Shown: positions 14,307-35,197 of the stretch, in pieces | Numbering within the stretch: position 1 is the stretch's first letter | How the letters are laid out: each line of letters opens with the position of its first letter | Source: a bacterium | Lineage (GTDB): Bacteria > Patescibacteriota > Minisyncoccia > Phycocordibacterales > JAKAEA01 | DNA length: 64,000 bases | Assembly (NCBI GenBank): GCA_021785065.1 | Contig: JAJYGQ010000017.1 | Location: forward strand, 925 to 64,924 | Reading direction: 5' to 3' | Notes under the pieces: model-generated | What the model saw: only the letters and a program-made list of their open reading frames with translations | What the model was told of the DNA's origin: nothing | The model's database searches: none | Translations under genes and position numbers: made by a program

Positions 14307-14328
14307 TGTTGTATAATAAAAATCATCT

Positions 14329-14946
14329 ATGAACATGAACACTTTACTAAAAATCTCATTTTTTTCGGCCGCGACAATTGGTCTTTTGACCTTTAGCCTG
14401 CAGGCCTCCGCGTCTTCTGTAGGGGGAACTCTAACGCCTGGTGGCGGTCTTAGTGGTGTTGGTGTCACCGGTACGGTGGTTACGCCCCCTATCGCCAATC
14501 CTAGTGCTGGTGTCTATACCTCGACGCAAAATGTCACCCTGACGGCCAGCGGCGCCTCGAGCATTCACTTTACGACTGATGGATCCTCACCAACTTGCTC
14601 TACTGGTACGGTTTATTCGAGCGCTATTTCGGTAAGCGTCTCGCAGGTAATAGAAGCTATTTCCTGCTATCCGGGTAACGCCTCATCGACGGTTGCCTCG
14701 TATTTGTACGCGATTAATCCGGGTTCAACCGGTGGTGGCGGGGGTACAACAGGCAGTCCAATTTCGTCACCTAATATCGGCACCACGGGTGGTACAAGTG
14801 GCAGCCAAATCATAGGTATTGCCGATTTTATTCTGCTTATGGAAAACTGGGGTCAAACTGGTCTCGGTAATCCGGCGGACTTCAATAAAGATGGTGCGGT
14901 GAACATCGGCGACTTTATTTGGCTTATGAGTAATTGGAATCAATAA
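14329..14946 (+). CDS. Secreted protein with a CHB_HEX_C-like (Fn3/Ig-like) domain and a C-terminal dockerin-like module
   Basis: Signal peptide. VYTSTQNVTLTASGASSIHFTTDGSSPTCSTGTVYSSAISVS matches the chitobiase/beta-hexosaminidase C-terminal domain signature. The C-terminus reads ADFILLMENWGQTGLGNPADFNKDGAVNIGDFIWLMSNW, a D.N.DG.VN..D calcium loop with a flanking helix, as in dockerin. Confidence 0.6.
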   Translation: MNMNTLLKISFFSAATIGLLTFSLQASASSVGGTLTPGGGLSGVGVTGTVVTPPIANPSAGVYTSTQNVTLTASGASSIHFTTDGSSPTCSTGTVYSSAISVSVSQVIEAISCYPGNASSTVASYLYAINPGSTGGGGGTTGSPISSPNIGTTGGTSGSQIIGIADFILLMENWGQTGLGNPADFNKDGAVNIGDFIWLMSNWNQ

Positions 14947-14951
14947 AATTT

Positions 14952-15677
14952 ATGAATACTAAAAAAATTATTTTTGCTGGCGTAATTACAACTCTCGGCG
15001 TGTTTGCTGTTGCTCTTCCGGCTTTCGCGGCAACTACTGCGTCATTTGTGCCAACTCCTATCAAAGTGGCTACGGGACAGCAATTCAACGTGGTGGTTAT
15101 GGTTAACCCGCAAGGCGTAAAAAATTACGCGGAAAAAGTTGAGGTTGATTATCCTGCCAATCTTCTCCAGGTCATCTCGTTTACACCGGGTAATAGTTGG
15201 ATGACGCTTCAGCAGCCTGGTTATGACTCTATAAACAACAACACGGGCGTGATGATTAAAACAGCTGGCTACCCGACAGGATTTTCATCACAAACACTTT
15301 TCGGTACCATTTTATTTACCGCTAAAAAAGCTGGCAGCGGCACTATCGCTATCGATAATCAATCGATTGCGTTTAAAGCGGGTGCTCAAACTACGACGCT
15401 TACGGGCACTCCGGCGCCGTTTACTATTAGCGTTGCTACTGTACCCGCGGCAAGCACAACTCCCGCTGCTCTTGCTCCGGTTTCTACGGTTAACGGTCAG
15501 GCGATTGCCACCGCTACAACTCCCGCTGGTCTCGCTTCTACCGCTAATTCACAACTTGCGGCCGCTGCCGCAAACGCCGGTGGCGTAGCCTACTGGGTCT
15601 GGATCCTGCTCGTCATCGCGATTATTCTCGTTATTGTACTCTTCATTCTCTACCGCAACCGAAAGGGAAAGATGTAA
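14952..15677 (+). CDS. Membrane-anchored cohesin-domain protein
   Basis: The track ORF starts at a TTG at 14934; the ATG at 14952 gives MNTKKIIFAGVITTLGVFAVALPAFA, a signal peptide. The stretch IKVATGQQFNVVVMVNPQGVKNYAEKVEVDYPANLLQV...LFGTILFTAKKAGSGTIAIDNQSIAF follows the cohesin beta-sandwich pattern (F.V.V......V.YD...L, then LATI.F.A). Then a Thr/Ala linker and the C-terminal TM anchor VAYWVWILLVIAIILVIVLFILYRNRKGKM. Confidence 0.55.
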   Translation: MNTKKIIFAGVITTLGVFAVALPAFAATTASFVPTPIKVATGQQFNVVVMVNPQGVKNYAEKVEVDYPANLLQVISFTPGNSWMTLQQPGYDSINNNTGVMIKTAGYPTGFSSQTLFGTILFTAKKAGSGTIAIDNQSIAFKAGAQTTTLTGTPAPFTISVATVPAASTTPAALAPVSTVNGQAIATATTPAGLASTANSQLAAAAANAGGVAYWVWILLVIAIILVIVLFILYRNRKGKM

Positions 15678-15685
15678 AAATATAG

Positions 15686-15758
15686 TCCGCCCAGCAGGAT
15701 TCGAACCTGCGACCGTTCGCTTAAGAGGCGACTGCTCTACCAACTGAGCTATGGGCGG
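15686..15758 (-). tRNA. tRNA-Lys (anticodon CTT)
   Basis: Reverse complement ccgcccatagctcagttggtagagcagtcgcctcttaagcgaacggtcgcaggttcgaatcctgctgggcgga. The D-arm is gctc-agttggta-gagc, the anticodon loop ctCTTaa, the T-arm gcagg-ttcgaat-cctgc, and the 7-bp acceptor is fully paired. Confidence 0.9.
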
Positions 15759-15799
15759 TGCAGATATGTAGCCTAACAATTTTTCGGCGATTTCGCAAT

Positions 15800-16150
15800 T
15801 TATTTTGCGAGCGTGCCAGGGGCGATGGAGGCGTTTGGTTCAAGAATAGAAAAATTGCCCGCGTCATCAGACACTGCAAAGAGCATGCCGTTTGATTGGT
15901 GACCGCGGATGGTGCGCGGCTCGAGATTGGTGACGAACATGCAGGTGCGGCCAATGAGCGTGGTAGGGTCGGGAAAATAAGCGGCAATACCGGAAACAAT
16001 TTGCCGCGGTGTAGGCTGACCAGCTTCGTCATGCTCGGCAAAATCAACACTAAGCCGCAAGAGCTTATCAGTGTCGGGAATTTTTTCGGCCGTTAAAATT
16101 TTGCCGGCGCGAATTTCTATTTTTTTGAAATCGTCAAGGGTGATAGTCAT
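15800..16150 (-). CDS. csaA: tRNA-binding protein, CsaA/Trbp111 (EMAP/Myf domain) family
   Basis: MTITLDDFKKIEIRAGKILTAEKIPDTDKLLRLSVDFAE...RQIVSGIAAYF matches the YgjH/CsaA pattern ([31 protein letters not shown]). Confidence 0.75.
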   Translation of the reverse strand: MTITLDDFKKIEIRAGKILTAEKIPDTDKLLRLSVDFAEHDEAGQPTPRQIVSGIAAYFPDPTTLIGRTCMFVTNLEPRTIRGHQSNGMLFAVSDDAGNFSILEPNASIAPGTLAK

Positions 16151-16201
16151 ACTACTTTTGATCAGGAGTAATGGAGGGAGTATACCAGATATTATAAAAA
16201 A

Positions 16202-16240
16202 AGCCCGTGCGTTCTCGAGAACGCACGGGCTGCTGTTTTT
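16202..16240 (-). terminator. Intrinsic terminator: perfect 14-bp stem gcccgtgcgttctc/gagaacgcacgggc followed by a T-run on both strands
   Basis: Plus strand reads aaaaaaagcccgtgcgttctcgagaacgcacgggctgctgtttttg. It lies directly downstream of the stop of the 16244..16498 minus gene. Confidence 0.6.
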
Positions 16241-16243
16241 GTA

Positions 16244-16498
16244 CTAGGTCATAACAATAGCGAGAATACTCGCTATAAACATTAGACTCCACACCATGAT
16301 GCCCAATGCCTGATCTAGTGTTATTTCTTTGTCACACACAATGAATGTGACAACTATAACCCCAGATACTATGGCAATAGCATCCAAAAGGTTTTTAGCA
16401 AGACTAATTGATCCCCAACAGCAGGCAGCGACGAGCGCTACTGCTAGCAAGTTACCAATCGCCATAAGCCCCATTCGATGATGTTTTTTAAAAAACAA
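16244..16498 (-). CDS. Hypothetical small membrane protein (84 aa, 2-3 TM helices)
   Basis: Track ORF with hydrophobic helices (LMAIGNLLAVALVAACCWGSISL, IVSGVIVVTFIVC, IMVWSLMFIASILAIVM). It is followed by the strong terminator. Confidence 0.35.
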   Translation of the reverse strand: MFFKKHHRMGLMAIGNLLAVALVAACCWGSISLAKNLLDAIAIVSGVIVVTFIVCDKEITLDQALGIMVWSLMFIASILAIVMT

Positions 16499-16629
16499 TA
16501 GACGACTCCTTTCGCAAAGATCGTAAAGAACAGGTATCGAGCGAACACACTATTCGCTCAGCAGTGAAACAAAATAACATTTTATAGAAATTTTGTCAAT
16601 TTTTTGCAGAATGTCCCGATACTTTTTTG

Positions 16630-16711
16630 TGCCCGGAGTGGGGGTCGAACCCACATTCCTTTCGGAACACGATTTTAAGTCGTGCGCGTATACCAGTTCC
16701 GCCATCCGGGC
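16630..16711 (-). tRNA. tRNA-Leu (anticodon TAA)
   Basis: Reverse complement gcccggatggcggaactggtatacgcgcacgacttaaaatcgtgttccgaaaggaatgtgggttcgacccccactccgggca. The anticodon arm cacga-cttaaaa-tcgtg gives TAA, with a long variable arm and the T-arm gtggg-ttcgacc-cccac. Confidence 0.9.
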
Positions 16712-16717
16712 GTCATG

Positions 16718-16792
16718 AGGCGTAGGCCGGGATCGAACCGGCGCATAGCGGTTTTGCAGACCGCCGCGTTAACCAACTTCGCCACTACGCCG
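16718..16792 (-). tRNA. tRNA-Cys (anticodon GCA)
   Basis: Reverse complement ggcgtagtggcgaagttggttaacgcggcggtctgcaaaaccgctatgcgccggttcgatcccggcctacgcct. The anticodon arm gcggt-ctGCAaa-accgc and the T-arm gccgg-ttcgatc-ccggc are as expected. Confidence 0.9.
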
Positions 16793-17125
16793 TCTATCTT
16801 CCTCCTCGTACGACAGCTCGTCAAGCCGCTGCCGATTCTTTTCGCCGAGGTCGAGCACAAACTCAGTGCTCGGCAAAAAACGAAGCTTGGCTCGCTCGGC
16901 GACGTACGCTCCGAATTCTCTCTTTTTTCTGGCTAAAAAGTCAAGAGCGGCCTGTTCGCGACTCTGTGGTAACACGGTGAGTAAGATGGTCATGGTGTGA
17001 CCGTGGTTACTTTCATGAGCACCGGTAACGGTGATGAGTGATTGTCCTGCCGACTCGCGATTAATAAACTCGGCGGCGAGTTCAGCAAAGAGCGCTTCGG
17101 TTTTTACTGTTTTGAGTGAGCTCAT
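16769..17125 (-). CDS. rbfA: Ribosome-binding factor A
   Basis: MSSLKTVKTEALFAELAAEFINRESAGQSLITVTGAHESNHGHTMTILLTVLP fits the RbfA KH-like fold pattern (LITVT.V.VS.D...A.VY). The C-terminal acidic tail overlaps tRNA-Cys by about 24 nt. Confidence 0.65.
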   Translation of the reverse strand: MSSLKTVKTEALFAELAAEFINRESAGQSLITVTGAHESNHGHTMTILLTVLPQSREQAALDFLARKKREFGAYVAERAKLRFLPSTEFVLDLGEKNRQRLDELSYEEEDRRRSGEVG

Positions 17126-18679
17126 TTATTTTTCTACGACGATAAATGCTTCTAAGCGGTCGCCGGGGGCGATTTCTATTTTTGATTCAACCAGGGCGCC
17201 AAATTCTTGTCCCTCGGGAACTTCAGCAATTTTATTTTTTTGTCGTTGAAGCTCGCGCACTCGACCACGACCAACTTCAAAATCGCGCCGCATAATTTTA
17301 ACCTCGCTGCCAAGTTTGATAAGGCCTTTTTCTACGCGGCCACCAATAACCTGGCGGTCGCGCATCTTACTAAAGAATTTTAGAACTTTAGCAATCCCGA
17401 TTTGTTCGTCGGTTTTTATCTTAGGCACGCTCTGAGCGGCAGTAGCGGCGAACCACTCGGCAAGCTTATAAATAATGTCAAATATTTCTATAGTAACGCC
17501 ACTGGTCTGCGCTAGACCTTTTGCGGCAGTAGCAATGCCAACACCAAAACCAATAATGATGATTCGTTTATCGGCAACAGCGGTCTTAATATCATTTTCA
17601 GTAATATCTCCAATTCCCGCCGTAATAATTTTAATAGTGAGTCGATCGTGGTTGATTTTAGCGATTTCGTGTTTCAGTGCTTCTAAGCCACCGACATTGG
17701 TAGCTTTGATAATAATGGGGAGCGTGGCAGTTGTTGCATCGTCGCTATCGTCTGCGGTAGTATGTGTTTGATTTTTTTTCTGCGGTGTAGGGTGGGTATG
17801 TTGCTCTTCGGCAATGGCGGCCTCAGCTTCTTTTTTTGAAGCAAGTGTACGGAAACGGGTGCCAACTGGCGGTAGCGTATTCCAGCCAAAAAGGCGCACT
17901 GGACTAGAGAAAGTGGCCTGACGGATTGCCGCGCCGGCAGCATTTTCCATAAGGCGTACGGGAGCCCAAGCGGTACCGGCCACAACGGCCGTCCCAGTAG
18001 TAATTGTGCCGTCTTTAATAATGAGCGTGGCGGCAATACCTTTTTTATGATCTACCGAAGATTCAATTACTACACCCTCGGCTGGTTTTGTTGGCGTGCC
18101 CGAAAGCTCGGCAATATCGGCGGCAAGATTAACTAGATCGAGTAGTTCAGGTACGCCCTCGCCGGTTTTTGCGGAAATAGCAACCCACGGTACATCACCA
18201 CCGTATCCTTCAACATATATGTCGTTTTCGGCGAGGCTGGCCTTGGTGCGCTCTACATCTGCACCTTCCTTATCTATTTTATTAATCGCAACCACAAAAG
18301 GAATGCCAGCAGTGCGAATAGCATCACGAGCTTCGATAGTTTGTGGACGAACACCGTCTTCGGCGGATACAACTAGAATAGCCACATCGGCGACTTGCGC
18401 ACCGCGAGAACGAATAGCGGCGAAAGCTGCATGTCCGGGTGTATCCAAAAAAGTGATACGGCGCGTAGTACCGTTAATAGTTCGCTCAACTTCATAGGCA
18501 GAAACCTTCTGAGTAATACCGCCTGCTTCACTGTCGACGATATTAGTGTGACGAATATAATCTAAAAGAGTTGATTTGCCGTGATCAACGTGGCCAAGTA
18601 CAGCTACGACTGGTGGTCGCGGTGTGCGAGTCTCAGTAGAGGAAGCGGTTTTTATTTTTGTATGATTTTTTGTTGACAT
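17126..18679 (-). CDS. infB: Translation initiation factor IF-2, short form (G domain plus domains II-IV only)
   Basis: VAVLGHVDHGKSTLLDYIRHTNIV (G1), DTPGHAAF (G3), NKIDK (G4) and the C-terminal beta-barrels. 517 aa, with only about 30 aa ahead of the G domain. Confidence 0.9.
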   Translation of the reverse strand: MSTKNHTKIKTASSTETRTPRPPVVAVLGHVDHGKSTLLDYIRHTNIVDSEAGGITQKVSAYEVERTINGTTRRITFLDTPGHAAFAAIRSRGAQVADVAILVVSAEDGVRPQTIEARDAIRTAGIPFVVAINKIDKEGADVERTKASLAENDIYVEGYGGDVPWVAISAKTGEGVPELLDLVNLAADIAELSGTPTKPAEGVVIESSVDHKKGIAATLIIKDGTITTGTAVVAGTAWAPVRLMENAAGAAIRQATFSSPVRLFGWNTLPPVGTRFRTLASKKEAEAAIAEEQHTHPTPQKKNQTHTTADDSDDATTATLPIIIKATNVGGLEALKHEIAKINHDRLTIKIITAGIGDITENDIKTAVADKRIIIIGFGVGIATAAKGLAQTSGVTIEIFDIIYKLAEWFAATAAQSVPKIKTDEQIGIAKVLKFFSKMRDRQVIGGRVEKGLIKLGSEVKIMRRDFEVGRGRVRELQRQKNKIAEVPEGQEFGALVESKIEIAPGDRLEAFIVVEK

Positions 18680-19179
18680 GTTGTAATGGCTGCCCGCTCT
18701 TCTTCAGAGAGCTCACGTTCAGATGTAAAGCGGCTAATTGGTTTTCCAAACACGCTGATGCGGTCGCGGGTGTAGAGGCTGGTAATAACAATACCATCAC
18801 CTTGCTCATTTAAAAATGCCGCACTAAAACTATTGTTGCCACCGTCGCCCGTTCCTTTGAAGGGATTATACCGAACGGTGCCAATACTCTGTACACTGTT
18901 TTTTAACCGCTGCTCTACGGTAGTCAGATACTGTCGCATGTCAGTAGTAAATTTTTTAAGCTCGGCGAGATCGGCGGTGGCAGCAACTAAAGCTTCTTCA
19001 ATAGAGGTAATTGGTGTCTTCATATCGTGTTGAAATACATTGCCAATGGCGAGGAGGCGGTTGACTCGTCGATAGAGCCAACCGAGGCGAAGTAGAATAG
19101 CAATGAGTAGAAGGCTAATAACGATAGCGGCGACGGTGAATATGTGTTGACTTATTGTGGTAAAAAAAGCGTTAAACAT
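18652..19179 (-). CDS. Hypothetical membrane-anchored protein (DUF4446-like)
   Basis: N-terminal TM helix (IFTVAAIVISLLLIAILL). RYNPFKGTGDGGNNSFSAAFLNEQGDGIVITSLYTRDRISVFGKPI resembles the DUF4446 core (NPF..GG.QSF..ALLD..GNG.V.T). It lies immediately upstream of infB and overlaps its start by 28 nt. Confidence 0.4.
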   Translation of the reverse strand: MFNAFFTTISQHIFTVAAIVISLLLIAILLRLGWLYRRVNRLLAIGNVFQHDMKTPITSIEEALVAATADLAELKKFTTDMRQYLTTVEQRLKNSVQSIGTVRYNPFKGTGDGGNNSFSAAFLNEQGDGIVITSLYTRDRISVFGKPISRFTSERELSEEERAAITTCQQKIIQK

Positions 19180-19311
19180 AGTGAAAAAGTGGCGAAGGTG
19201 TAAGGAAAATAAAATTCCTTTAAAAAACTTCTAAAATCTTTATGAACCGCCAGTACCATATAATATAGTACACAAACGCATCTTTAGCAAAAATGCGGTA
19301 CCATAGAGCGT

Positions 19312-20544
19312 ATGAAGCGATCCAGAAGAATTTATCTTGATTATGCTGCTGCTACGCCGCTCGATAAGCGGGTGGCAAATGCTATGCGTCCTTATGCGTC
19401 GGATATTTTTGCCAATCCGTCATCTATTCATGAGGAGGGTGTGGTTGCGCGTCGAGTCGTAGATGCCGCGCGGACAAGTATTGCTCGATTGCTCAATATC
19501 CGTTCCGAAGAAATTATTTTTACGGCGAGTGGCACTGAAGCAGATAATTTGGCCATTCTCGGGGTGATACAAAAAGCGCGTGAGAAGGGTGTCGCTACGC
19601 CGCACATTATTACTACGGTAATTGAGCACCCGGCTGTTTTTGAAGCGTGTCACGCGGCCGAGCAATGGGGGATACGCGTTACCTATTTGCCCGTTAATAC
19701 TGCTGGCGTTGTTGACCCTCAAGCAATTGCTCGGGCGCTTACGCCGGAAACGGTGTTGGTGTCGGTGCAATTAGCTAATAGCGAAATTGGCATTATCCAA
19801 TCTCTCCATAGTATTGCTACGGTGATCGCGGAATATAAAAAAAGCAGCGGCAATAACAATCACGCTCTTGGTGATCTTGGATATCCCTATTTCCATACCG
19901 ATGCGAGTCAGGCCCCTAATTATCTTGATGTTTCTTTTCAAAAATACGGCGTCGATATGATGACGCTTGATGCGGCAAAAATCTACGGTCCAAAGGGTAT
20001 TGGCTTGTTGGCAGTAAAACACCAAGTAGCGTTGGCGCCGCGCACGCTTGGTGGCGGGCAGGAGCGAGGATTGCGAGCGGGTACGGAAAACGTGCCGGCG
20101 ATCATTGGTTTCGCTGCTGCGTTATCGCTTGCGACAAAGTTGCGTGAAAGGGAGTATACTCGCTTAAGCGCTTTGCAAAAATATTTTATATACACTCTGA
20201 AAGAAACTTGGCCCGAAAACGTAATTATATTTAGTGATGATTGTCAGAAATATTTACCAAATAGTGTTACTATATGTGTTAGGAGTGGGGAAGAAGCAGA
20301 GCTTATGGTGGTGCGTCTGGATGCTTTGGGTATTGCCTGTTCCGCCGGTAGCGCTTGCACCAATCTCTCTACCGCCGCGTACTCGTATGTAATTGAGGCG
20401 CTTGATACTGCGGCGGCTACCGATTCTTCCCATCAGCCCGCTTGGCGAGATTGTAAAAGTTCCTCAATTCGCTTTAGTTTTGGCCGAAGAACCACCAAGA
20501 AAGACCTTGATTTGACATTAAGAGCTTTACGTTCTATAATTTAA
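19312..20544 (+). CDS. Cysteine desulfurase (NifS/IscS-like, class V aminotransferase fold)
   Basis: IYLDYAAATPLDKRVANAMRPY, the PLP lysine region (MTLDAAKIYGPKGIG) and the C-terminal active-site Cys loop (ACSAGSACTN). Confidence 0.85.
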   Translation: MKRSRRIYLDYAAATPLDKRVANAMRPYASDIFANPSSIHEEGVVARRVVDAARTSIARLLNIRSEEIIFTASGTEADNLAILGVIQKAREKGVATPHIITTVIEHPAVFEACHAAEQWGIRVTYLPVNTAGVVDPQAIARALTPETVLVSVQLANSEIGIIQSLHSIATVIAEYKKSSGNNNHALGDLGYPYFHTDASQAPNYLDVSFQKYGVDMMTLDAAKIYGPKGIGLLAVKHQVALAPRTLGGGQERGLRAGTENVPAIIGFAAALSLATKLREREYTRLSALQKYFIYTLKETWPENVIIFSDDCQKYLPNSVTICVRSGEEAELMVVRLDALGIACSAGSACTNLSTAAYSYVIEALDTAAATDSSHQPAWRDCKSSSIRFSFGRRTTKKDLDLTLRALRSII

Positions 20545-26406: not shown

Positions 26407-26478
26407 GGGCCTATAGTTTCAATGGTAAAACAGCGGTCTCCAAAACCGTAGTTCCCCGTTCGAGTCGGGGTGGGCCCG
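26407..26478 (+). tRNA. tRNA-Trp (anticodon CCA)
   Basis: gggcctatagtttcaatggtaaaacagcggtctccaaaaccgtagttccccgttcgagtcggggtgggcccg. The anticodon arm cggtc-tCCAaaa-ccg gives CCA; the T-arm is ccccg-ttcgagt-cgggg. Confidence 0.9.
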
Positions 26479-26560
26479 CAGCGAGGCGTTACTAGAAAGC
26501 GGCTGGAACCGCATTTACCGTGATATACTCTTATAATAAGATTTATTCACATATTACCAC

Positions 26561-26605
26561 ACTGTTCCAGACAGCCCGCCAGCTCGTGCGTAGCACGAAA
26601 GGTGT
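26561..26605 (+). repeat. Direct repeat copy 1 (45 nt) with hairpin core ctcgtgc-gtag-cacgaaa; upstream of the SNF2-MTase gene
   Basis: actgttccagacagcccgccagctcgtgcgtagcacgaaaggtgt matches 31376..31420 at about 37 of 45 positions. The 32-nt core gcccgcca.ctcgtgcgtagcacgaaagg.gt has two mismatches. Confidence 0.6.
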
Positions 26606-26684
26606 CAAGCCAATGACTTTTTAACTCTGGATAGACTGATAGCGGGTTACGCAGACCAGGGCCTGTATGTGTATAATGTAAAAT

Positions 26685-29600
26685 ATGGAATCTCCAGAAA
26701 AACCTTCTTCAGCAGATAATCTAAAAGATGAAGTATCCCAGGTTGAACAAGACAAGGAGATAGATAAAAAAAGTCTGGAACTTTCTCCTACGAGTGGGCA
26801 ACTAATTGGTAAGGAAGTTATAAAGCATGAATATGCCCGCGCAGATTGGAAAAACAGGCGAGAATTGTCGGATACTTTTCGTACGGGGACCGATGTGATT
26901 GATAGATTAGTGCAGGAGTATTTGGACCTGCATCCTGAGGCGAAATCAGAGGACATCGAAACAGCTAAGAAAAAAGAAACTGGCTTTGTTACTGTCTACT
27001 ATTCTCCCAAGGTGCAATCGTATCTTGAGGAAAAGTTACGAGTATCGTTGCCACCTAGTAACTGGGTACCATTCCCAATTCTTGTTGAAAAGCTGGGTAT
27101 TTCTGCTCCTACTGTTGTCAAATTAGTGAATGCTTATTCTAAAGATTTTCCGAAGATTGCTCAGACAGAAACCGGTACATACAAAGAAGAGAAGGGGCAT
27201 AGGCGGTTATTTTATTCACCTCTATTTGCTGAGTTGCTAAAAAAAGAGTTTGATAAATACCCGGCCGCACCTCAGAATTGGAAGACCCAGATGCAAATGG
27301 CCTCTGAAGAGGGTGTTGATTTCGCACGCCTAGATAAATTTTTAAAAGAGTATTCCATGCAACATTCCCAGGAAGAACATAAGGGTATGTTTCGAAATGG
27401 GCGCAATCAAGTATATGAGCATTATTCACCGCAGGTAGCTGCGTATATACATCAAGAATTACAACGGTACGAAGACACCCCTGAAGGATGGATAAATAGA
27501 AACAAACTCGCTAAAAGACTCAATGTTGTCGATGCGACCGTCCAAAGAATTATCGATAGCTACCTAGCAACCCACCCTAATTCGAAGGATGTTAAAAAAG
27601 CAAAGAGTGATAGGGGGCTGGTTCTTAATGTTTTCTCGCCCGTTATCCAAGAATATGTCGCGGCTACACTGGCTGCTTCTTTAGAAAGTCGCAATAAAGA
27701 GAAAGAACCAGAACCTTCCGCGCCAGAAGACTGGAAGATGGTCAGTGATATTGCAAGTGAGTTAAAAGTAAGCAGAGACATAGTAACAAAAACCATCAAA
27801 GAATATTTTCAGACTCATTCTGAGGAAGGTAGTAAGAAAAAATATCCTGCGACAACTTCTTGGAAGACAGGAAGTATTGTTACTAGACCCGTTGTTCATT
27901 ATTCACCAGCTGTTGTTGATTATTGTCGAACGGTAATTGAAGGCTTAAAAAGCAATATGGCTCAAGAAGGATGGTTAACAGTAAGCGATCTTCAGGAAGT
28001 TCTCGGAATATCGTGGACGACTATAAATTCGTTAATAAAAAAATACCAGACACAAAGCACGGACCCCCAGCTCCCTAAGAGACGTAGAAATCCAAGGGGA
28101 AAGATGTGGAAATATTATCCACCGGTAGTTGTAGAATGGTTAAAAAACGAGGTGGCAAAACATCCCCGTGCACCTAAAGACTGGAAAATTCTTGGCGAGC
28201 TCTCAGAGCAATTTAGTGTCTCCCAGGATACTCTCCGGCGTTTAGTCGAAAGACAGGCAGCGTTAAATCCTGACAGTGTCGTGATCAAAGAACTCAGGAA
28301 TGATCGAGGTGTTGTGTGCACCTTTTACTCACCAGAGACCATATTGCAACTCAAACAGTCTCTTGAACAGCATACTAAAGGGAAAAGTGAGCTTGAGAAC
28401 AAGTTAACAGGTCTCCTTGCAAACCCTGAAAAGGAGGAAGGTCGCAAATTCCGTGAAATGCTCGGACTCTTCGGTCCTTCTAACTTTCTAGATATACTCT
28501 ATGTCTTGCATCCAGAGTTTAGGGATCTTCCGGTAGACCATGTTAAGGGGAAATTAACAGAATATCTTGGTAACTACCTGTTAACTGCTATACCATTTTC
28601 AGTAGATGCTCTCGAGAAAAACCTACCGTCCTTAAAACAGGAAAACCTAAGACGCGGTCTTGCCGAGGTTATAAAGGGTGATTGTCTCAATTTTTATTTG
28701 CTTGAAAAAAAGCAATCGCCTCTTAGGGATGATCTTGAGATATTTCAATTGTATTTTGACGATTTAACTTCAAGGACAGCGAATAACCAAAACCTCGACC
28801 TCAATCAAGTAGTAGCAGAAGTCAGGGAATATTATCAATCAGTTACAGGTTCGTGGGTGAAACCGACAAGGATCATTGAATCCCTAAGCGCTGATAGGCC
28901 GTTCCCCGACATTTATCAGCAAATTAATCGGCAGGAAATCAAAGATAAGAAACGTCTTCTTATTGCTGACGAAATGGGGGTAGGTAAAAGCGCTTCCGTT
29001 ATTCTTGCTAAAGAATCATTGGGAGTAAAAACCGCTCTTGCTGTAGTTCCTAGTAATGTTGTTGCTACATGGGAAAAATATCTTTCTGATACTGTTGGTG
29101 ATGATGGTCGACAGCTAGGCTATTTTAAGCCCGGCCAAGCACCGAGGGTGCTTACTATACGTAGCTCTGACGATCTTATGCGTCTTAACGATGGCTATGA
29201 TTACATTCTTATTTCACAAGAACGTTTGAATGATGCGAACGCTGAGGAGCTTCAAAAACTTGATTACGGAATGCTTATTGTAGATGAAGTCCATAAACTT
29301 AAAAATGTTCGTGATGGTAAGCGAGCAAATCATCTACTAAACCTAGCCGAAAAAATAGAAGGAGATGATAAGTACTTAGTAATGCTTTCGGGTACACCTG
29401 TGCCAAATAAAGTTGAAGATGTTGCAATGCTGCTTAAACTTTTGCATCCCGACCGTTTTGCCCAGGAAGATAGTAAGCGTCTCGTAAGCGCCATTTTGAA
29501 TGGCAGTATTGTCAATATACGTTCTTTGCTCATACCGCACATGCAGATGAAAGGCTTGGCTGAACACGTAGAAATGCCAAACCTTACAGAGGCTACCATT

Positions 29601-31316
29601 TCTATTCCGTTAAGTCGCCAAGAAGAAGATATTTATCAAGTTCTTCTTGAAGAAGACGAACTCACGCCCACACAAAAACTTCAGATTCTTCGACAATTTC
29701 TTCTCAATCATCGCTTGCTAGACATCACCCCCGGTGTGCCAGAAGCAAAAATTGAAAAAACACAAGCAGAAATATCTAAAGCGTTCGAAACAAATAATAA
29801 AGTAATTTTGTTTGTGAATGATTATATTGAGGGTGTATTGAGGGGCGAAAATTCTGTCTTAAGTCAGCTTGCTCTGCCTCCGGGTGTAATAGTGCGAGCC
29901 ATTCATGGCAACACTTCTCCAGAAGAACGTCAGTCTATTCAAGAAGAACTCAACAATTCGTCCCAAAGACTGCTTTTGGCAGTAAGTGGTAATACTGCTG
30001 ATGTGGGAGTTGATTATTCAGGCGCTGAAAGAGTTTTCTTTTATAATGAACCGTGGACAAAAGCAGCCTATGAGCAACAGCTTGCACGTGTATATCGGCC
30101 GGGCGTCACTAAAGATATTCAAGCTGACATTTTTGTTACAGAAGGCACGCTTGAACAAGGTATACATCACTACGTTGAAGTAAAAAATAAAGCAATAGAA
30201 AAGTTGCTTAAAGGCATTCCTATTACCGAGCTGGAAGCAGAGCTGCTGAAAGCTAGTGAAAGAGGTGATAATACAGATCTGGATGTTAATCCTGAATTGG
30301 CCCAGTATTATTTTTCTTCTTTTGATAAGCTCAATAGGATTTTTGCCTCAGTGAAGGAAATAGGTGAAAAGAATTTTACGGAATTCCTGCAGCGACATGG
30401 TGAAGAGTATGCGGAATGCTACCTTAACCTGGGTAGCCGAAGTTATCAGTCGAACGCAAGTCGAGTATCCGCAACAGTCATCAGTGCTCTTGGGCGACAA
30501 GATGGAATTGAAAATCCTAAAATTCTGGATATTGCCTCAGGTCCTGAAATGCTCAAGAAACATTCGGGCGAAGGTTTACAGAAAAACATAACGAGTCTGG
30601 ACATTAATCCCGCACACTTCAAAGATTCAGAGGAAGGCACGACGGTAGTGGGCAGTTTTACTAAAATGCCTTTTCCGGATGGTAGTTTTGATTATACAAA
30701 CCTGTCTTTGGCATTACAATATACAAAGTTTGTACCCAGTCGAGGTGAATATGAACGTATCCGGGTTCTCAAGGAGGCGGCCAGGGTGTTAAAAACGGGT
30801 GGCAAACTGGTTCTAAACATGCCGTACTCGTTAGACTTTAAGAATTATCAAAAATTTAAAGAATTTAGTGAATTATTTGGTTTACGAGTCGTGGACGAAT
30901 ATTCAGATGAAGTACAGGTAGGTAATTCCTATCATTCTCGTGTAATAACTCTTCAGAAAGTCGAAGGCATTGATCAGAGTATTGACGAAATCATCAGGAA
31001 TATGTTTCGTGAAGACTGGGATGGTCTTAAACTTGTTCCGAAAGAAGCGCGTCTTAAGGATTCTCGTAAAATTATCTCTCAATTTAAGATAAGTAATAAA
31101 CAGCTCGATATTTCTTTTAACGAACAGGACAAAAAAATTATTGCTGAAGAAAGAGATGCTCTTGAGAAGGCTGCCGACCTCAAAGAAAAATATGGGGCAA
31201 TAGATCGCATTGATGGAGGGCAGATTCAGGAACATGGTTTTGTCCGGCTTAAGCTGGACAAGAAATACATTCTATTTAAGAAACTTTCTGATGGTAGCGT
31301 AGTGATTGTAAAATAG
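26685..31316 (+). CDS. Large multidomain protein: about seven HTH-like repeats, an SNF2-family ATPase/helicase (N and C lobes) and a C-terminal class I SAM methyltransferase (Methyltransf_11-like)
   Basis: 1543 aa. Repeats of 70-85 aa (aa ~45-560) share YSP....L......P..W......LA..L.VS..TV..LI..Y...HP. SNF2 motifs are LLIADEMGVGKSASV (I) and MLIVDEVHKLKN (II), with a helicase-C lobe (LLLAVSGNTADVGVDYSGAERVFFYNEPW, QQLARVYRPG). The MTase has ILDIASGPEML (motif I), MPFPDGSFDY (motif II) and VLKTGGKLVLNMPYS (motif III), and no DPPY/NPPY motif. The gene is about 41% GC against about 52% for its neighbours. Confidence 0.75.
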   Translation: MESPEKPSSADNLKDEVSQVEQDKEIDKKSLELSPTSGQLIGKEVIKHEYARADWKNRRELSDTFRTGTDVIDRLVQEYLDLHPEAKSEDIETAKKKETGFVTVYYSPKVQSYLEEKLRVSLPPSNWVPFPILVEKLGISAPTVVKLVNAYSKDFPKIAQTETGTYKEEKGHRRLFYSPLFAELLKKEFDKYPAAPQNWKTQMQMASEEGVDFARLDKFLKEYSMQHSQEEHKGMFRNGRNQVYEHYSPQVAAYIHQELQRYEDTPEGWINRNKLAKRLNVVDATVQRIIDSYLATHPNSKDVKKAKSDRGLVLNVFSPVIQEYVAATLAASLESRNKEKEPEPSAPEDWKMVSDIASELKVSRDIVTKTIKEYFQTHSEEGSKKKYPATTSWKTGSIVTRPVVHYSPAVVDYCRTVIEGLKSNMAQEGWLTVSDLQEVLGISWTTINSLIKKYQTQSTDPQLPKRRRNPRGKMWKYYPPVVVEWLKNEVAKHPRAPKDWKILGELSEQFSVSQDTLRRLVERQAALNPDSVVIKELRNDRGVVCTFYSPETILQLKQSLEQHTKGKSELENKLTGLLANPEKEEGRKFREMLGLFGPSNFLDILYVLHPEFRDLPVDHVKGKLTEYLGNYLLTAIPFSVDALEKNLPSLKQENLRRGLAEVIKGDCLNFYLLEKKQSPLRDDLEIFQLYFDDLTSRTANNQNLDLNQVVAEVREYYQSVTGSWVKPTRIIESLSADRPFPDIYQQINRQEIKDKKRLLIADEMGVGKSASVILAKESLGVKTALAVVPSNVVATWEKYLSDTVGDDGRQLGYFKPGQAPRVLTIRSSDDLMRLNDGYDYILISQERLNDANAEELQKLDYGMLIVDEVHKLKNVRDGKRANHLLNLAEKIEGDDKYLVMLSGTPVPNKVEDVAMLLKLLHPDRFAQEDSKRLVSAILNGSIVNIRSLLIPHMQMKGLAEHVEMPNLTEATISIPLSRQEEDIYQVLLEEDELTPTQKLQILRQFLLNHRLLDITPGVPEAKIEKTQAEISKAFETNNKVILFVNDYIEGVLRGENSVLSQLALPPGVIVRAIHGNTSPEERQSIQEELNNSSQRLLLAVSGNTADVGVDYSGAERVFFYNEPWTKAAYEQQLARVYRPGVTKDIQADIFVTEGTLEQGIHHYVEVKNKAIEKLLKGIPITELEAELLKASERGDNTDLDVNPELAQYYFSSFDKLNRIFASVKEIGEKNFTEFLQRHGEEYAECYLNLGSRSYQSNASRVSATVISALGRQDGIENPKILDIASGPEMLKKHSGEGLQKNITSLDINPAHFKDSEEGTTVVGSFTKMPFPDGSFDYTNLSLALQYTKFVPSRGEYERIRVLKEAARVLKTGGKLVLNMPYSLDFKNYQKFKEFSELFGLRVVDEYSDEVQVGNSYHSRVITLQKVEGIDQSIDEIIRNMFREDWDGLKLVPKEARLKDSRKIISQFKISNKQLDISFNEQDKKIIAEERDALEKAADLKEKYGAIDRIDGGQIQEHGFVRLKLDKKYILFKKLSDGSVVIVK

Positions 31317-31375
31317 ATCGGCTCAGTTTTGTAACTAATGTTTTTTTGTTATAATCTCTCCAATTCCGTTCTAAT

Positions 31376-31420
31376 ACTGTCGTACACGGCCCGCCAACTC
31401 GTGCGTAGCACGAAAGGCGT
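31376..31420 (+). repeat. Direct repeat copy 2 (45 nt), 60 nt downstream of the SNF2-MTase stop and about 170 nt upstream of the next gene
   Basis: actgtcgtacacggcccgccaactcgtgcgtagcacgaaaggcgt. An extended -10 tgttataat lies at about 31347-31355, just upstream. Confidence 0.6.
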
Positions 31421-31592
31421 TTGGTTAGTTAGCGCAGATGTTGAACGTCACACTTATAGCAAGTCTATTTGCATAGTGAAATTAAGTCGTTATTGTAGGA
31501 TTTATTAGGCTATTTTTTCCTATTTGTATAGGTGTTATAAAGTTTCTACGCCACTGTCATTATGAGTGTGTGGGGTAATTTTATTAAGAATT

Positions 31593-31907
31593 ATGTTTAA
31601 AAAAGCCTTATTTTTAATAGCTGTAGCAGGTTTGGTAGCGGGTACTTTTGCTGTACCTGCGGGACATATTTTAGCGTGGGGTTATTATGGTGGTTATCAA
31701 AATTATAATGGCTACCATTACTATAATGGCTACCATTATTACGGCGGCTATTACTATACGCCAATGTATTATACGTATCCATCTTGTTCGTGGAATTGTT
31801 CTTCATCCTACAATCACTACTACAATTACAACTATAACTATAACCACTACTACAACTACAACAATCATTACAATTATAACTACAACTACAATCACACGTA
31901 CTGGTAG
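31593..31907 (+). CDS. Secreted Tyr/Asn-rich low-complexity repeat protein
   Basis: The ATG at 31593 gives the signal peptide MFKKALFLIAVAGLVAGTFAVPAG; the track ORF begins at an upstream GTG at 31566. The mature part is YYGGYQNYNGYHYYNGYHYYGGYYY...NYNYNYNHYYNYNNHYNYNYNYN, encoded by in-frame hexanucleotide-like repeats (tacaac/tataac). The locus is AT-rich. Confidence 0.4.
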   Translation: MFKKALFLIAVAGLVAGTFAVPAGHILAWGYYGGYQNYNGYHYYNGYHYYGGYYYTPMYYTYPSCSWNCSSSYNHYYNYNYNYNHYYNYNNHYNYNYNYNHTYW

Positions 31908-31964: not shown

Positions 31965-32660
31965 TTAATCAAGATTTTTTATCGCTGCTTCCATATTGCT
32001 CAGGTTAGCAAACGGCGGATAGACGACGCCGTTGACGATGAGGAAGGGCGGTGTGGTGGTGGCGGGAATAGGGGGAAGCGCGATAAGACTTTGCACGGCT
32101 ACCCAATCGTCATTGTAATTAAAGGAGTAAATGTGAGCGCCGGGATACTGCTGCTTGATGGCTTGCAAAATGTAACCCTGACCGACGCATTGGGCGCAGG
32201 TGCCGGTGGGATAGAAATATAAAATAAATGGACGCGTCGTGCTGTTGGGGATTTTGCAGTGATGGGTGATGGTCTGTTCTAAATTGTAATCTTTAATTTC
32301 CATGAGCGAATAATAGCGCTCGAGGCGGAAGAGATCGGGATTATCGGGGCCGAGCTGGCCTTGTAAAAAGGAGAGTTTACTCTGCAGATCATTGAGGCTA
32401 GCGGCGATGCTTGCAGCAGTCGTGGTGGCTGATGCGCCGGCGCTGGTGGTGGACGCGCAGAGTGAGGCGTTGAGATTGGCGGTCAAGATATCGGTTCGTG
32501 CTTGCAATGCGAGAATTTGGGTGGCAATGGCGTCCTCCTCGTTTTTGACCGCGGCAGTTTTTTGGATATTGATGTAGGTGCTGATGAGCCACGCGCCAGC
32601 AAAAATCACAATAGTGATAATGAGTGCAGCGATATAGAGTTTAATGGGGATACGTTTCAT
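31965..32660 (-). CDS. Membrane-anchored thioredoxin-fold protein with a CxxC motif (DsbA-like)
   Basis: N-terminal TM helix, a coiled-coil-like segment, then ILYFYPTGTCAQCVGQ with a CAQC active-site-like motif and downstream cis-Pro-like features. Confidence 0.45.
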   Translation of the reverse strand: MKRIPIKLYIAALIITIVIFAGAWLISTYINIQKTAAVKNEEDAIATQILALQARTDILTANLNASLCASTTSAGASATTTAASIAASLNDLQSKLSFLQGQLGPDNPDLFRLERYYSLMEIKDYNLEQTITHHCKIPNSTTRPFILYFYPTGTCAQCVGQGYILQAIKQQYPGAHIYSFNYNDDWVAVQSLIALPPIPATTTPPFLIVNGVVYPPFANLSNMEAAIKNLD

Positions 32661-34057: not shown

Positions 34058-35197
34058 ATGAAAAATATCGTTATTAATGACCCGGAGGAACAGGCACTTA
34101 TTGCGGCATTGGAAAAACGCAGCGATGTGAAGGCTGAGAGAATCAAGCGACTGCTCCGTCTTCCTGATTTGACCAAAAAAGAACATTCGCCAGTAAAAAT
34201 TTTGTTTGATCAAATCAAAGCGTTACCGCGATTTAAAGATTTTGATCTAGTAGATTTTCCAAGGATTGTGACCGTTGAGCAAAATTTTGATCTTTTGAAT
34301 GCGCCGGCGGATCATCCAAGTCGGCGAGAAACGGATACGTATTATGTTGATCAAAATCATGTGTTGCGAACGCAAGCGACGGTGATGTGGTCATTTTATT
34401 TGAAAGATAAGGAAATTCTTGAGAAGTTGGAAAGGGAAGGCGAAATAAAAGCTCTCTCAACTGGTATTGTGTTTCGAAAAGATGAAATTGACCGAAATCA
34501 CTATCCAGCATTTCATCAAATAGACGGCCTCTATGTGTGCAAGCGATCGAAAAAAACCATTACCCAAAAAGATTTAGAGGATGTGCAGGTTGATTTAGCA
34601 AAAAGTATTTTCGGCACCGATATCGAATATCAATTTTTGACGGACACCTTTCCCTTTACTGATCCGTCCGTTGAAATGGATATAAAATTCAACGGCGATT
34701 GGCTTGAGGTCAACGGCGCTGGCTTGGTGCACCCTCAAGTTTTGAGAAATTTTGGACTTGATCCCGAGATGTATAACGGCTGGGCGTTCGGTTTCGGTGA
34801 CCGACTGGCAATGATCAAGATGGGTATTCCCGACATTAGAATTTTATGGTCGGACGACCCACGCATCACGAGTCAATTCAAAGATATCAACAGCACGTTC
34901 AAAGAGGTGAGTAAATATCCGGCGGTGGTCCGCGATATCTCTTTTGTGATTGACGCGAGCATTAGCTTGAATAATTACTATGAAATTGTGCGTGACATTG
35001 CTGGTAATTTAATAGAGGAAGTGCAACTCATTGATACCTTTAAAAATGAGCAGAAATTTGGAGCGGGTAAAGTGTCGTATACATTTCGTATAGTGTACCG
35101 CTCGTTGGAGCGGACGCTTACTAACAGCGAAGTGAACGATATTCACGAGGGAATTAGAAAGAAAACTGAGCAGGAATTCAAGGCGATCTTGCGCTAA
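34058..35197 (+). CDS. pheS: Phenylalanine--tRNA ligase, monomeric type: PheS-like catalytic core fused to a C-terminal FDX-ACB anticodon-binding domain
   Basis: Class II motif 2 is GIVFRKDEIDRNHYPAFHQIDGLYV and motif 3 is GWAFGFGDRLAMIKMGIPDIRILWSDDPR. A further ~105 aa (YPAVVRDISFVID...GKVSYTFRIVYRSLERTLTNSEVNDIHEGI) match the ferredoxin-fold anticodon-binding domain normally found at the PheT C-terminus. Confidence 0.8.
   Translation: MKNIVINDPEEQALIAALEKRSDVKAERIKRLLRLPDLTKKEHSPVKILFDQIKALPRFKDFDLVDFPRIVTVEQNFDLLNAPADHPSRRETDTYYVDQNHVLRTQATVMWSFYLKDKEILEKLEREGEIKALSTGIVFRKDEIDRNHYPAFHQIDGLYVCKRSKKTITQKDLEDVQVDLAKSIFGTDIEYQFLTDTFPFTDPSVEMDIKFNGDWLEVNGAGLVHPQVLRNFGLDPEMYNGWAFGFGDRLAMIKMGIPDIRILWSDDPRITSQFKDINSTFKEVSKYPAVVRDISFVIDASISLNNYYEIVRDIAGNLIEEVQLIDTFKNEQKFGAGKVSYTFRIVYRSLERTLTNSEVNDIHEGIRKKTEQEFKAILR

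Follow-up and report, generated by a model that had tools for sequence, protein, structure and literature searches.

Direct repeats around an orphan SNF2-methyltransferase gene in a Patescibacteria genome as probable remnants of serial insertion at tRNA-Trp

Integration sites in tRNA and tmRNA genes were reportedly surveyed by Williams in 2002. The attC sites of integrons are imperfect palindromes of 57-141 nt that are conserved in structure, not in sequence. In Dehalococcoides, several small islands lie in tandem downstream of one small-RNA gene, ssrA, each bounded by a direct repeat of the gene 3' end, with a conserved motif immediately upstream that is not alignable with the gene (McMurdie et al. 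2011, PMC3146451). Their cargo is strain-specific and interrupts synteny, the serine integrase DsiB is present in 16 islands, and many islands devoid of an integration module were taken to be either cis-mobilizable or fixed (PMC3146451). The CIMEs described together with site-specific accretion (ICESt1/ICESt3 of Streptococcus thermophilus) have attL/attR flanks and no integration or transfer genes (PMC5704250).

Here we describe a pair of direct repeats next to tRNA-Trp in a 64-kb stretch of DNA from a Patescibacteria genome, hereafter the window. We consider it probable that they are att-type direct repeats left by a series of site-specific insertions at tRNA-Trp, and that the locus, which no longer has an integrase, is CIME-like. 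The locus resembles the ssrA islands of Dehalococcoides in its tandem repeats of an RNA-gene end, the conserved motif upstream, the variable cargo, and the islands without an integration module. It differs from them in that the target is tRNA-Trp and not tmRNA, the host belongs to a Patescibacteria lineage, the repeat reaches ~24 nt past the RNA gene into a palindromic trailer, and in none of the four genomes sampled here was an intact integration module seen. As in a CIME, the segment carrying the SNF2 gene is flanked by att-type repeats without integration or transfer genes; unlike for known CIMEs, a functional relative among ICEs or IMEs that uses the same att site was not identified here, and the mobility of the segment is only predicted. 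With the classical tRNA-linked islands and prophages (P4-type) the locus shares the insertion at the tRNA 3' end, the intact tRNA, a far boundary that repeats the tRNA end, the atypical composition and the variable cargo, whereas the single-gene segment of 4.8 kb, the lack of an integrase and an identity block situated mostly downstream of the tRNA set it apart. The features of the locus are listed below in window coordinates; L086, L089/L090 and L100 denote loci of related genomes, L100 being the closest relative.

26407-26479, plus strand: intact tRNA-Trp with CCA anticodon (ARAGORN; Rfam tRNA, 57.4 bits)
26480-26560, plus strand: spacer of 81 nt between the tRNA and copy 1, another tRNA trailer type (AGCGAGGCG…AGCGGCTGGAACCGCATTTACCG), too small for an ORF
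26561-26605, plus strand: copy 1 of the repeat, composed of a diverged left arm ACTGTTCCAGACA, the core GCCCGCCAG, the palindrome and AAGGTGT (profile match 26546-26639)
26584-26598, plus strand: inverted repeat in copy 1, TCGTGC-GTA-GCACGA, 0 mismatches
26603-26635, plus strand: right-hand arm after copy 1, GTGTCAAGCCAATGACTTTTTAACTCTGGATAGA, common to the native L086 tRNA-Trp trailer and L100 junction A
26685-31316, plus strand: SNF2-HTH-methyltransferase (SNF2-MTase) ORF of 1543 aa with several HTH motifs, an SNF2 helicase core and a class I SAM methyltransferase domain (Pfam)
31347-31394, plus strand: left arm of copy 2, TGTTATAAT…CAATTCCGTTCTAATACTGTCGTACACG-GCCCGC, running into the first 6 nt of the core
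31376-31420, plus strand: copy 2 of the repeat, composed of the arm end, the core GCCCGCCAA, the palindrome and AAGGCGT (profile match 31349-31442)
31399-31413, plus strand: inverted repeat in copy 2, TCGTGC-GTA-GCACGA, perfect (inverted-repeat search)
31593-31907, plus strand: small secreted Tyr/Asn/His/Gly-rich ORF of 104 aa beyond the last repeat (translation; gene call in L001)
31965-32660, minus strand: 231-aa ORF, the first conserved gene past the variable region, followed by GT2 and PheRS

The original prediction of a 45-nt direct repeat around the SNF2-MTase gene is borne out as to the plus strand and the 32-nt core GCCCGCCARCTCGTGCGTAGCACGAAAGGYGT with its two mismatches (30/32 identical), and the identity, given there as about 37/45, is 38/45 (84%). 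The copies differ at 7/45 positions, indicating that the insertion event was not recent. The statement that the motif is found nowhere else in the window holds as well: the core has exactly two occurrences in the 64 kb with up to 3 mismatches tolerated (0.00 in shuffled sequence), a profile derived from ten homologous copies found the same two sites alone, and looser palindrome and half-motif searches of the window gave no extra copies. The stem-loop had been drawn as ctcgtgc-gtag-gcacgag and has to be shortened to an inverted repeat of six perfect pairs and a 3-nt loop, in which both window copies have C·A as a seventh pair, where L086 and the metagenomic locus L096 have C-G.

The origin of the repeats can be traced to the end of a tRNA gene. 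The last bases of the window tRNA-Trp, GGGCCCGC, are the start of the repeat core, the first 6-8 nt of which, GCCCGC[CA], correspond to the tRNA-Trp 3' end, and both copies begin with GCCCGCCA, i.e., the acceptor 3' strand, the discriminator and CCA. This tRNA end within the core had been missed by the original prediction. The window's own present tRNA shares GCCCGC alone with the copies, while the full 32-nt core equals the tRNA-Trp end and trailer of L086 and L096. In L086, the tRNA-Trp ends in GCCCG-CCA, is directly followed by the palindrome CTCGTGC-nnn-GCACGAG and then by GTCAgGaCAATGA, so that the continuation reads CCA-ACTCGTGC-AGC-GCACGAG-ACGCGTCAGGACAATGA. Read from the sequences, the tRNA-Trp of L086 is the same as that of the window over 73 nt, and the 3' 39 nt are identical by alignment. 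A local alignment of copy 1 (26574-26635) with L086 11308-11369 extends over 63 columns (z = 14.1 against shuffles), and copy 2 aligns with the L086 tRNA-Trp trailer over 33 columns (z 12.6). Since the L086 tRNA-Trp runs straight into the repeat sequence, each window copy appears, from this homology, to be a displaced tRNA-Trp 3' end together with a trailer containing a 15-17-bp palindrome.

The same trailer follows a different tRNA-Trp in a different context in L096 (27/30 identical to the L086 trailer), which points to its horizontal spread rather than vertical inheritance. A tRNA-Trp was present in 19 of the loci compared, and among these the trailer occurred solely in L086-L088, which belong to one genome, and L096. 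L086-L088 were obtained by exact-protein look-up and not by MgsA similarity, the 80 Patescibacteria loci collected via MgsA being too distant at ~70% identity. The tRNA-Trp at 26407-26479 is the anchor and the integration target, with copy 1 starting 82 nt and the SNF2 ORF 206 nt downstream of it. The spacer between the tRNA and copy 1 is homologous to the tRNA-Trp trailer of L089/L090 (AGTGAAGCA…AGCGGCCGGAATCGTATTTCCGG), and we interpret it as what is left of an insertion that came later to the tRNA end and has since been gutted. Copy 1 borders the SNF2 segment towards the tRNA and is a junction where two successive insertions meet, not a simple attL; copy 2 is the distal, attR-like boundary, and its conserved left arm is the element-side arm of the distal site.

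The original prediction had named comparison with related genomes as a check, and this uncovered a tRNA-Trp-linked variable region with different cargo in each genome. The synteny ClpB–Aminotran_4–MgsA–tRNA-Trp … 23x-aa ORF–GT2–PheRS is common to the window, L086, L089/L090 and L100, and between these flanks each genome holds unrelated genes divided by 1-3 further repeat copies with both arms conserved. The variable stretch comprises three unrelated ORFs in L100, a Fic gene with a metallophosphatase-like and a SET-domain ORF in L089, and parts of a DGR with a truncated large serine recombinase in L086. The further copies are A, B and C in L100, two in L089, one of which repeats 21 nt of L089's own tRNA end and trailer, and one in L086 that abuts the 236-aa ORF; all copies in the relatives lie within the tRNA-Trp variable stretch. 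Conservation of both flanking arms spans genomes that share only ~75% DNA identity in MgsA. The left arm of copy 2 matches L089 copy 3 at 29/34 positions over 34 nt, L089 copy 2 at 24/27 over 27 nt, and L100 junction B at 78% over 82 nt, TGTTATAAT included, and at the right edge of the variable region in L086, copy 2 is matched at 22/22 positions. The palindrome has constant arms, CTCGTG/CACGAG, and a 5-nt centre differing from genome to genome and mostly constant within one; this centre is not the same in the two L086 copies, which are thus not products of one exchange within the palindrome.

Homologues of the 231-aa ORF occupy the same position with 77% (L100), 53% (L089 contig) and 52% (L086 contig) identity, and the small Tyr/Asn-rich ORF has a counterpart at the same position in L100 (11093-10761; tblastn, 53% over 113 aa), indicating that it probably predates the SNF2 insertion. 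A strictly empty site, with tRNA-Trp directly followed by the small ORF, was not found in the related loci. Two short contigs with a closer MgsA, L098 and L099, were considered as empty-site evidence and rejected, as they hold no tRNA-Trp and an unrelated ORF follows MgsA. The SNF2 protein is an orphan whose sole close match among 5.8 billion proteins is itself; exact look-ups of it for reaching related loci gave nothing, tblastn against the syntenic loci of L086, L089, L090, L091 and L100 gave no homologue, and PADLOC returned generic SNF2 matches only. The G+C content between the copies (26606-31375) is 40.8%, compared with 47.8% upstream, 46.2% downstream and 47.3% in the whole window. Assembly breaks at 31169/31170, inside the SNF2 gene, were discarded as a sign of strain variation, because the two same-strain contigs merely abut.

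Taken as an island, the segment lies next to an intact tRNA, has a repeat of the tRNA end at its distal boundary, shows variable content between syntenic flanks and is atypical in G+C, and there is no integrase gene inside it. Taken as a CIME, it consists of two copies flanking a single non-recombinase gene without recombination and transfer genes. In the SNF2 protein, the sole ORF between the copies, a Pfam search found no recombinase domain even at E ≤ 1, nor did those ORFs of the 64-kb window that were Pfam-scanned or annotated, 20 other window ORFs included, yield an integrase; the truncated serine recombinase is restricted to the L086 stretch. The search of viral contigs with 19- to 27-nt patterns gave 0 matches, i.e., no free element or attP, and 11 loci of viral contigs with relatives of the truncated L086 recombinase contained no tRNA-Trp-like attP. 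Two GCCCGCCA 8-mers in those viral loci were rejected as att candidates, as neither shows signs of a tRNA-Trp-like site and the L104 8-mer makes up one half of an inverted repeat of unrelated sequence.

We hypothesize that the ancestral tRNA-Trp ended in the repeat sequence, a state that L086 and L096 retain. The SNF2-HTH-methyltransferase segment would then have been inserted by site-specific recombination, duplicating the shared sequence into a proximal copy 1 and a distal copy 2, and a later event at the tRNA end would have moved copy 1 81 nt further off, leaving behind the L089-type trailer and a diverged arm. The order of these events, the type of recombinase and the exact crossover point are those that we infer. 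Without a recombinase gene of its own, the segment would be a fixed CIME-like remnant, mobile solely with a recombinase supplied in trans. All modules in the four genomes sampled are unusually small (0.1-9 kb) and none contains an intact recombinase gene, which is somewhat unexpected for classical islands in decay. The earlier idea of attL/attR-like boundaries is largely supported by the homology to the tRNA-Trp end, the cargo that varies among relatives and the lower G+C; it is weakened by the missing integrase and strictly empty site, and has to be modified for copy 1.

The modules could instead belong to an active platform, in which the two-armed sites of ~75-100 nt are working recombination sites and capture at tRNA-Trp is integron-like, with the recombinase encoded elsewhere in these tiny genomes; this we regard as unlikely. 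Equally unlikely is the accompanying proposal that cassettes of 1-3 genes (SNF2-MTase, Fic, SET-domain ORF, DGR parts) are exchanged and that the palindrome just after CCA is the crossover site. The 2-4 sites in each of four genomes do separate very small modules, both arms are far better conserved than expected under neutrality, and the constant palindrome arms with a variable 5-nt centre are what a crossover spacer would be expected to look like. As with integron cassettes, a conserved inverted-repeat site closes each of the small modules, which share one strand (that of the tRNA) in the window and L089, and the array adjoins a fixed anchor. Unlike in integrons, there is no IntI or attI, some modules are multi-gene with mixed orientation, and unlike attC, the sites are conserved in sequence, have only a 15-17-nt palindrome and a core derived from the tRNA end. 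The array lies between MgsA/RarA and tRNA-Trp at one end and the 231-aa ORF and GT2 at the other, none of these genes being an integrase. The mixed gene orientations and two different palindrome centres of L086 also speak against such a platform, tandem accretion followed by decay gives the same pattern without a new system (PMC3146451, PMC5704250), and a circular cassette or variation within a population was not observed.

Less likely still is that the flanks are old conserved chromosomal sequence between which cargo is swapped without any site-specific recombinase, either by homologous recombination after DNA uptake or by local duplication or gene conversion of the tRNA trailer. The conserved arms on both sides of each module could provide the homology, an integrase is absent, and copy 2 and L100 junction B look orthologous. 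However, the arms are only ~30-45 nt long, which is short for efficient homologous exchange, and the duplicated unit starts exactly at the tRNA 3' end, a hallmark of site-specific insertion. The trailer shared with the unrelated tRNA-Trp of L096 and the recombinase remnant in L086 do not fit this explanation either.

The original prediction had also offered a shared cis-regulatory leader, an RNA hairpin or operator. Such an element might act as a hairpin in the leader RNA or be bound, as a DNA operator, by a dimeric HTH protein, perhaps the SNF2-HTH protein with its several HTH motifs, and would co-regulate the SNF2-MTase and Tyr/Asn-rich genes; our data make this just as improbable as the swapping of cargo. 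The TATAAT-like boxes on which it drew exist (TTATAAT at 26531-26537 and the extended -10 TGTTATAAT at 31347-31355, the latter retained in L100 junction B), each copy lies downstream of one of them and upstream of a gene, and the palindrome is a perfect 6-3-6. The boxes end 24 and 21 nt before the repeats rather than 25-35 nt, show no -35 match by reading, and were not listed by the sigma-70 scan, and there are closer -10-like boxes for both genes, TATAAT at 26672-26677, 7 nt before the SNF2 ATG, and TGTTATAAA at ~31533 for the small ORF. Rfam recognized only tRNAs in the whole window at the gathering score, and the hits of both leaders at E ≤ 10 were noise (E > 4). RNA folding of the two leaders and the two elements yields the 6-bp hairpin, with an energy of the element alone no better than that of shuffles (z -1.1, copy 1); none of its pairs changed on both sides in ten copies, equal to the shuffled controls, and the innermost pair is broken in L100. 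In the relatives, the repeat precedes unrelated genes or abuts the stop of a convergent gene, and the repeat sequence itself is accounted for by the tRNA-Trp end and trailer. Transcription through the repeats may occur; if the -10-like boxes, situated in the conserved AT-rich arm, are active, transcripts of the next gene would carry the core hairpin as a passive 5' leader.

A generic dispersed repeat (REP/MITE-like) present twice by chance, as a short, intergenic, palindrome-containing sequence might suggest, is scarcely credible, given only two copies in 64 kb, the position of all copies in relatives within the tRNA-Trp stretch, 0 matches of an exact 20-mer of the repeat in 185,579 species genomes, and six matches in a JGI metagenome pattern scan, of which one is a true tRNA-Trp trailer (L096) and the other five, in GC-rich sequence without a tRNA nearby, are read as chance.

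Serial site-specific insertion at tRNA-Trp, our preferred reading, replaces an apparent new RNA or operator motif with a concrete history of the locus. The mechanism is familiar, and the finding is mainly of annotation value; if an exchange of cassettes proved true, a previously undescribed gene-capture array in Patescibacteria would be at hand. Under the best reading, the orphan 1543-aa SNF2-HTH-methyltransferase arrived by horizontal transfer as cargo of an insertion hotspot at tRNA-Trp, and in a small Patescibacteria clade the same hotspot holds differing accessory genes, such as Fic, a SET-domain ORF, DGR parts and toxin genes. The mobile-element biology of ultra-small uncultured bacteria is poorly charted, and a hotspot with recognisable boundaries provides a handle on their accessory genes and eventually on the recombinase.

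The SNF2-HTH-MTase gene of the window is bracketed by two 45-nt direct repeats, which lie at the positions and on the strand originally predicted, and a tRNA-Trp gene overlooked in that prediction ends 82 nt upstream of copy 1.

Features around the repeat pair in the window
26407-26479, tRNA-Trp gene
26531-26537, TATAAT-like box before copy 1
26561-26605, plus strand, copy 1, tRNA-proximal direct repeat
26672-26677, nearer -10-like box TATAAT, 7 nt before the SNF2 ATG
26685-31316, SNF2-HTH-MTase gene
31347-31355, TGTTATAAT box before copy 2
31376-31420, plus strand, copy 2, distal direct repeat
near 31533, nearer -10-like box TGTTATAAA, closer to the small Tyr/Asn-rich gene
31593-31907, small Tyr/Asn-rich ORF beyond copy 2

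The copies are identical at 38/45 positions. Their inverted repeat is TCGTGC-GTA-GCACGA, with 6 pairs and a 3-nt loop, in place of the proposed 7-pair stem ctcgtgc-gtag-gcacgag. With up to 3 mismatches tolerated, the 64 kb contain the 32-nt core GCCCGCCARCTCGTGCGTAGCACGAAAGGYGT exactly two times, and dinucleotide-preserving shuffles contain no match. A site profile scanned over the window and the other fetched loci found no copies beyond those described here. A 20-mer of the repeat had no match in 185,579 species-representative genomes, and a generic dispersed repeat is the less likely reading.

Long contigs of related genomes were reached via MgsA homologues (84-85% identity). The tRNA-Trp of one of them, L086, equals that of the window over all 73 nt and runs unbroken into …GGGCCCG-CCA-ACTCGTGC-AGC-GCACGAG-ACGCGTCAGGACAATGATATTTAAGG…. 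Copy 1 aligns with this tRNA end and trailer over 63 columns (GCCCGCCAGCTCGTGCGTAGCACGAAAGGTGTCAAGCCAATGACTTTTTAA…; z = 14.1 against shuffles) and copy 2 over 33 columns (z = 12.6 against shuffles). Since the L086 tRNA continues into the repeat and both copies align there, the motif is, by sequence comparison, the acceptor 3' strand of tRNA-Trp with discriminator and CCA, followed by a natively trailing palindrome. In JGI metagenomes, a scan revealed this trailer immediately after another tRNA-Trp, one with unrelated surroundings (contig L096); it is identical to the L086 trailer at 27/30 positions, which suggests that the trailer spread horizontally and was not inherited vertically. When the tRNA ends were compared (window 26479, L086 11315, L096 1853), CCA was not encoded in the window gene (…GCCCG|CAG) but was encoded in the otherwise identical L086 gene (…GCCCG-CCA) and in the displaced copies; CCA encoding thus depends on which inserted DNA abuts the tRNA.

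The alignment of ten copies defines a conserved left arm (AATTCCGTTCTAATACTGTC…ACG), a tRNA-like part (GCCCGCCA), a palindrome with constant arms CTCGTG/CACGA(G/A) and, at internal junctions, a right arm GTCa.g.cAATGA.tTTTAa..TtTGCATAGA. The 5-nt palindrome centre differs between genomes, being CGTAG in the window, AGGCG or CGGCG in L100 (the closest relative), CAGCG at the L086 tRNA and CGATG in L096. The MgsA genes of these genomes share only ~75% DNA identity, so the site arms are clearly better conserved than neutral divergence would allow.

The host belongs to the Patescibacteria (CPR), its MgsA/RarA matching mainly Paceibacterota, Taylorbacteria and Saccharibacteria MAGs at ~70-74% identity. 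Housekeeping genes flank the locus upstream (ClpB, class IV aminotransferase, MgsA, tRNA-Trp) and downstream (a 231-aa ORF, 77% identical to its L100 counterpart, GT2 glycosyltransferase, monomeric PheRS, GyrB). Both flanks are kept in four related genomes including that of the window, and the content between them differs in each.

Content between the conserved flanks (tRNA-Trp and the 23x-aa ORF)
L086: 9 kb containing genes for reverse transcriptase and bAvd, components of a diversity-generating retroelement (DGR), and a truncated large serine recombinase
L089/L090 (L089 12477-16348): Fic, a 297-aa ORF, a metallophosphatase-like ORF (weak Pfam match), a SET-domain ORF
L090 (9498-9902): PemK toxin gene between MgsA and tRNA-Trp
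L100: a group of three small ORFs, followed by three further, unrelated ORFs (248, 364 and 185 aa)
Window: a remnant of 81 nt, followed by the SNF2-HTH-MTase gene

The L089/L090 cargo consists of typical accessory or addiction genes. Further copies of the site lie within these stretches: three in L100 (A, B and C), of which B matches window 31341-31422 at 78% over 82 nt, TGTTATAAT included; two in L089, one repeating 21 nt of its own tRNA end and trailer; and one in L086, directly abutting a 236-aa ORF and identical to copy 2 at 22/22 positions. The L086 stretch (11521-20246) holds reverse-transcriptase fragments, bAvd and a recombinase without the catalytic N-terminal domain. Full-length relatives of this recombinase are encoded on the viral contigs L102 and L104. 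In each, ~300-450 nt of non-coding sequence immediately precede the gene (1950-2300 and 6150-6470) and include shared blocks (…ATGACGGGTT…, …TAGTCTGCATAGCT…); this sequence may represent a structured RNA or an att region. The monomeric PheRS of the window (34058-35197, 379 aa) is of mitochondrial type, with a class II core and an FDX-ACB anticodon-binding domain, and is also kept in L089/L090 and L100; bacteria normally have an α2β2 PheRS, and the monomeric type is unusual. At 46187-47128, a NusB domain and a NUDIX hydrolase domain are joined in a single ORF.

The sole ORF between the copies encodes 1543 aa, in which an SNF2 helicase core and a class I SAM methyltransferase domain are combined with four or more HTH motifs. 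Among 5.8 billion proteins its only close match is itself, the best other relatives reaching at most 31% identity over 6% of its length; PADLOC gave generic SNF2 matches only (ZorD, BrxH, DpdE, DrmD), and tblastn found no homologue in the L086, L089/L090 or L100 loci. The G+C content between the copies is 40.8%, against 47.8% upstream and 46.2% downstream. Contigs from separate assemblies of apparently one sample break at an identical base (~31169/31170) inside the 3' end of the SNF2 gene, where L001-L003 start (NCBI, ENA, Logan) and L084/L085 end (NCBI, Logan), and simply abut. The small ORF beyond copy 2 is 53% identical to L100 11093-10761, just past the last L100 copy, and probably predates the SNF2 insertion. 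By eye it has a hydrophobic signal-peptide-like N-terminus; its mature part is almost all Tyr, Asn, His and Gly (YNYNYN… runs), and no Pfam family matched.

This anatomy is the expected product of serial site-specific insertion at a tRNA gene 3' end. Each insertion would leave the tRNA intact and push the old end and trailer to the far side of the incoming segment, and element-borne arms would come to flank the shared core on either side. The window tRNA would formerly have ended in a palindromic trailer, as that of L086 does now; insertion of the SNF2 segment would have left copy 1 next to the tRNA and copy 2 at the distal end; and a later event at GCCCGC, of which only 81 nt would survive, would have separated the tRNA from copy 1 by a diverged arm and a trailer of L089 type. 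We infer this order, the recombinase class and a crossover within GCCCGC or at the palindrome centre; the homologies, arms, differences in cargo and shift in composition are direct observations. The locus has the position, repeat, variability and composition of a tRNA-linked island, and the SNF2 segment lacks an internal integrase. Neither the segment nor the Pfam-scanned or annotated ORFs of the window yielded a recombinase, which makes the segment a remnant resembling a cis-mobilizable element (CIME).

An active, undescribed integron-like platform for cassette capture, the most novel of the readings, would be considerably more interesting than a scar, and the very small integrase-less modules, the well-preserved arms and the variable palindrome centre speak for it. 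However, neither a recombinase nor a circle or population variant came to light, and accretion with decay accounts for the same data. Such a platform is improbable. Cargo swapping by homologous recombination is likewise less likely than serial insertion. The original prediction was right in substance about the boundaries of an inserted element, but its other reading, a shared leader or operator, is unsupported: the sequence derives from a tRNA end, the site in relatives precedes unrelated genes or abuts a convergent stop codon, no Rfam family matches, the ten copies hold no compensatory pairs and the folding energy is unremarkable. The TATAAT-like boxes predicted before the copies do exist, yet they are absent from the sigma-70 scan list and lack a -35 match by inspection; if they fire, the hairpin would merely be carried as a leader. 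No Shine-Dalgarno sequence was seen by inspection before the SNF2 ATG (26672-26687), and the gene may, judging from its start region, be expressed from a leaderless mRNA.

The closest described case to the serial insertions is that of the tandem ssrA islands of Dehalococcoides, with direct repeats of the RNA gene 3' end, each immediately preceded by a conserved motif not alignable with the gene, and strain-specific cargo; many of these islands are without integration modules and were interpreted as cis-mobilizable or fixed (PMC3146451). The CIME/accretion model of streptococcal ICEs follows the same logic (PMC5704250). In contrast to these systems, tRNA-Trp serves as the target in a CPR host, most of the identity block falls in the palindrome downstream of the tRNA, and none of the sampled genomes holds an intact integration module. 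The proposed mechanism is already known, and the tRNA-Trp locus would add another case, in the CPR.
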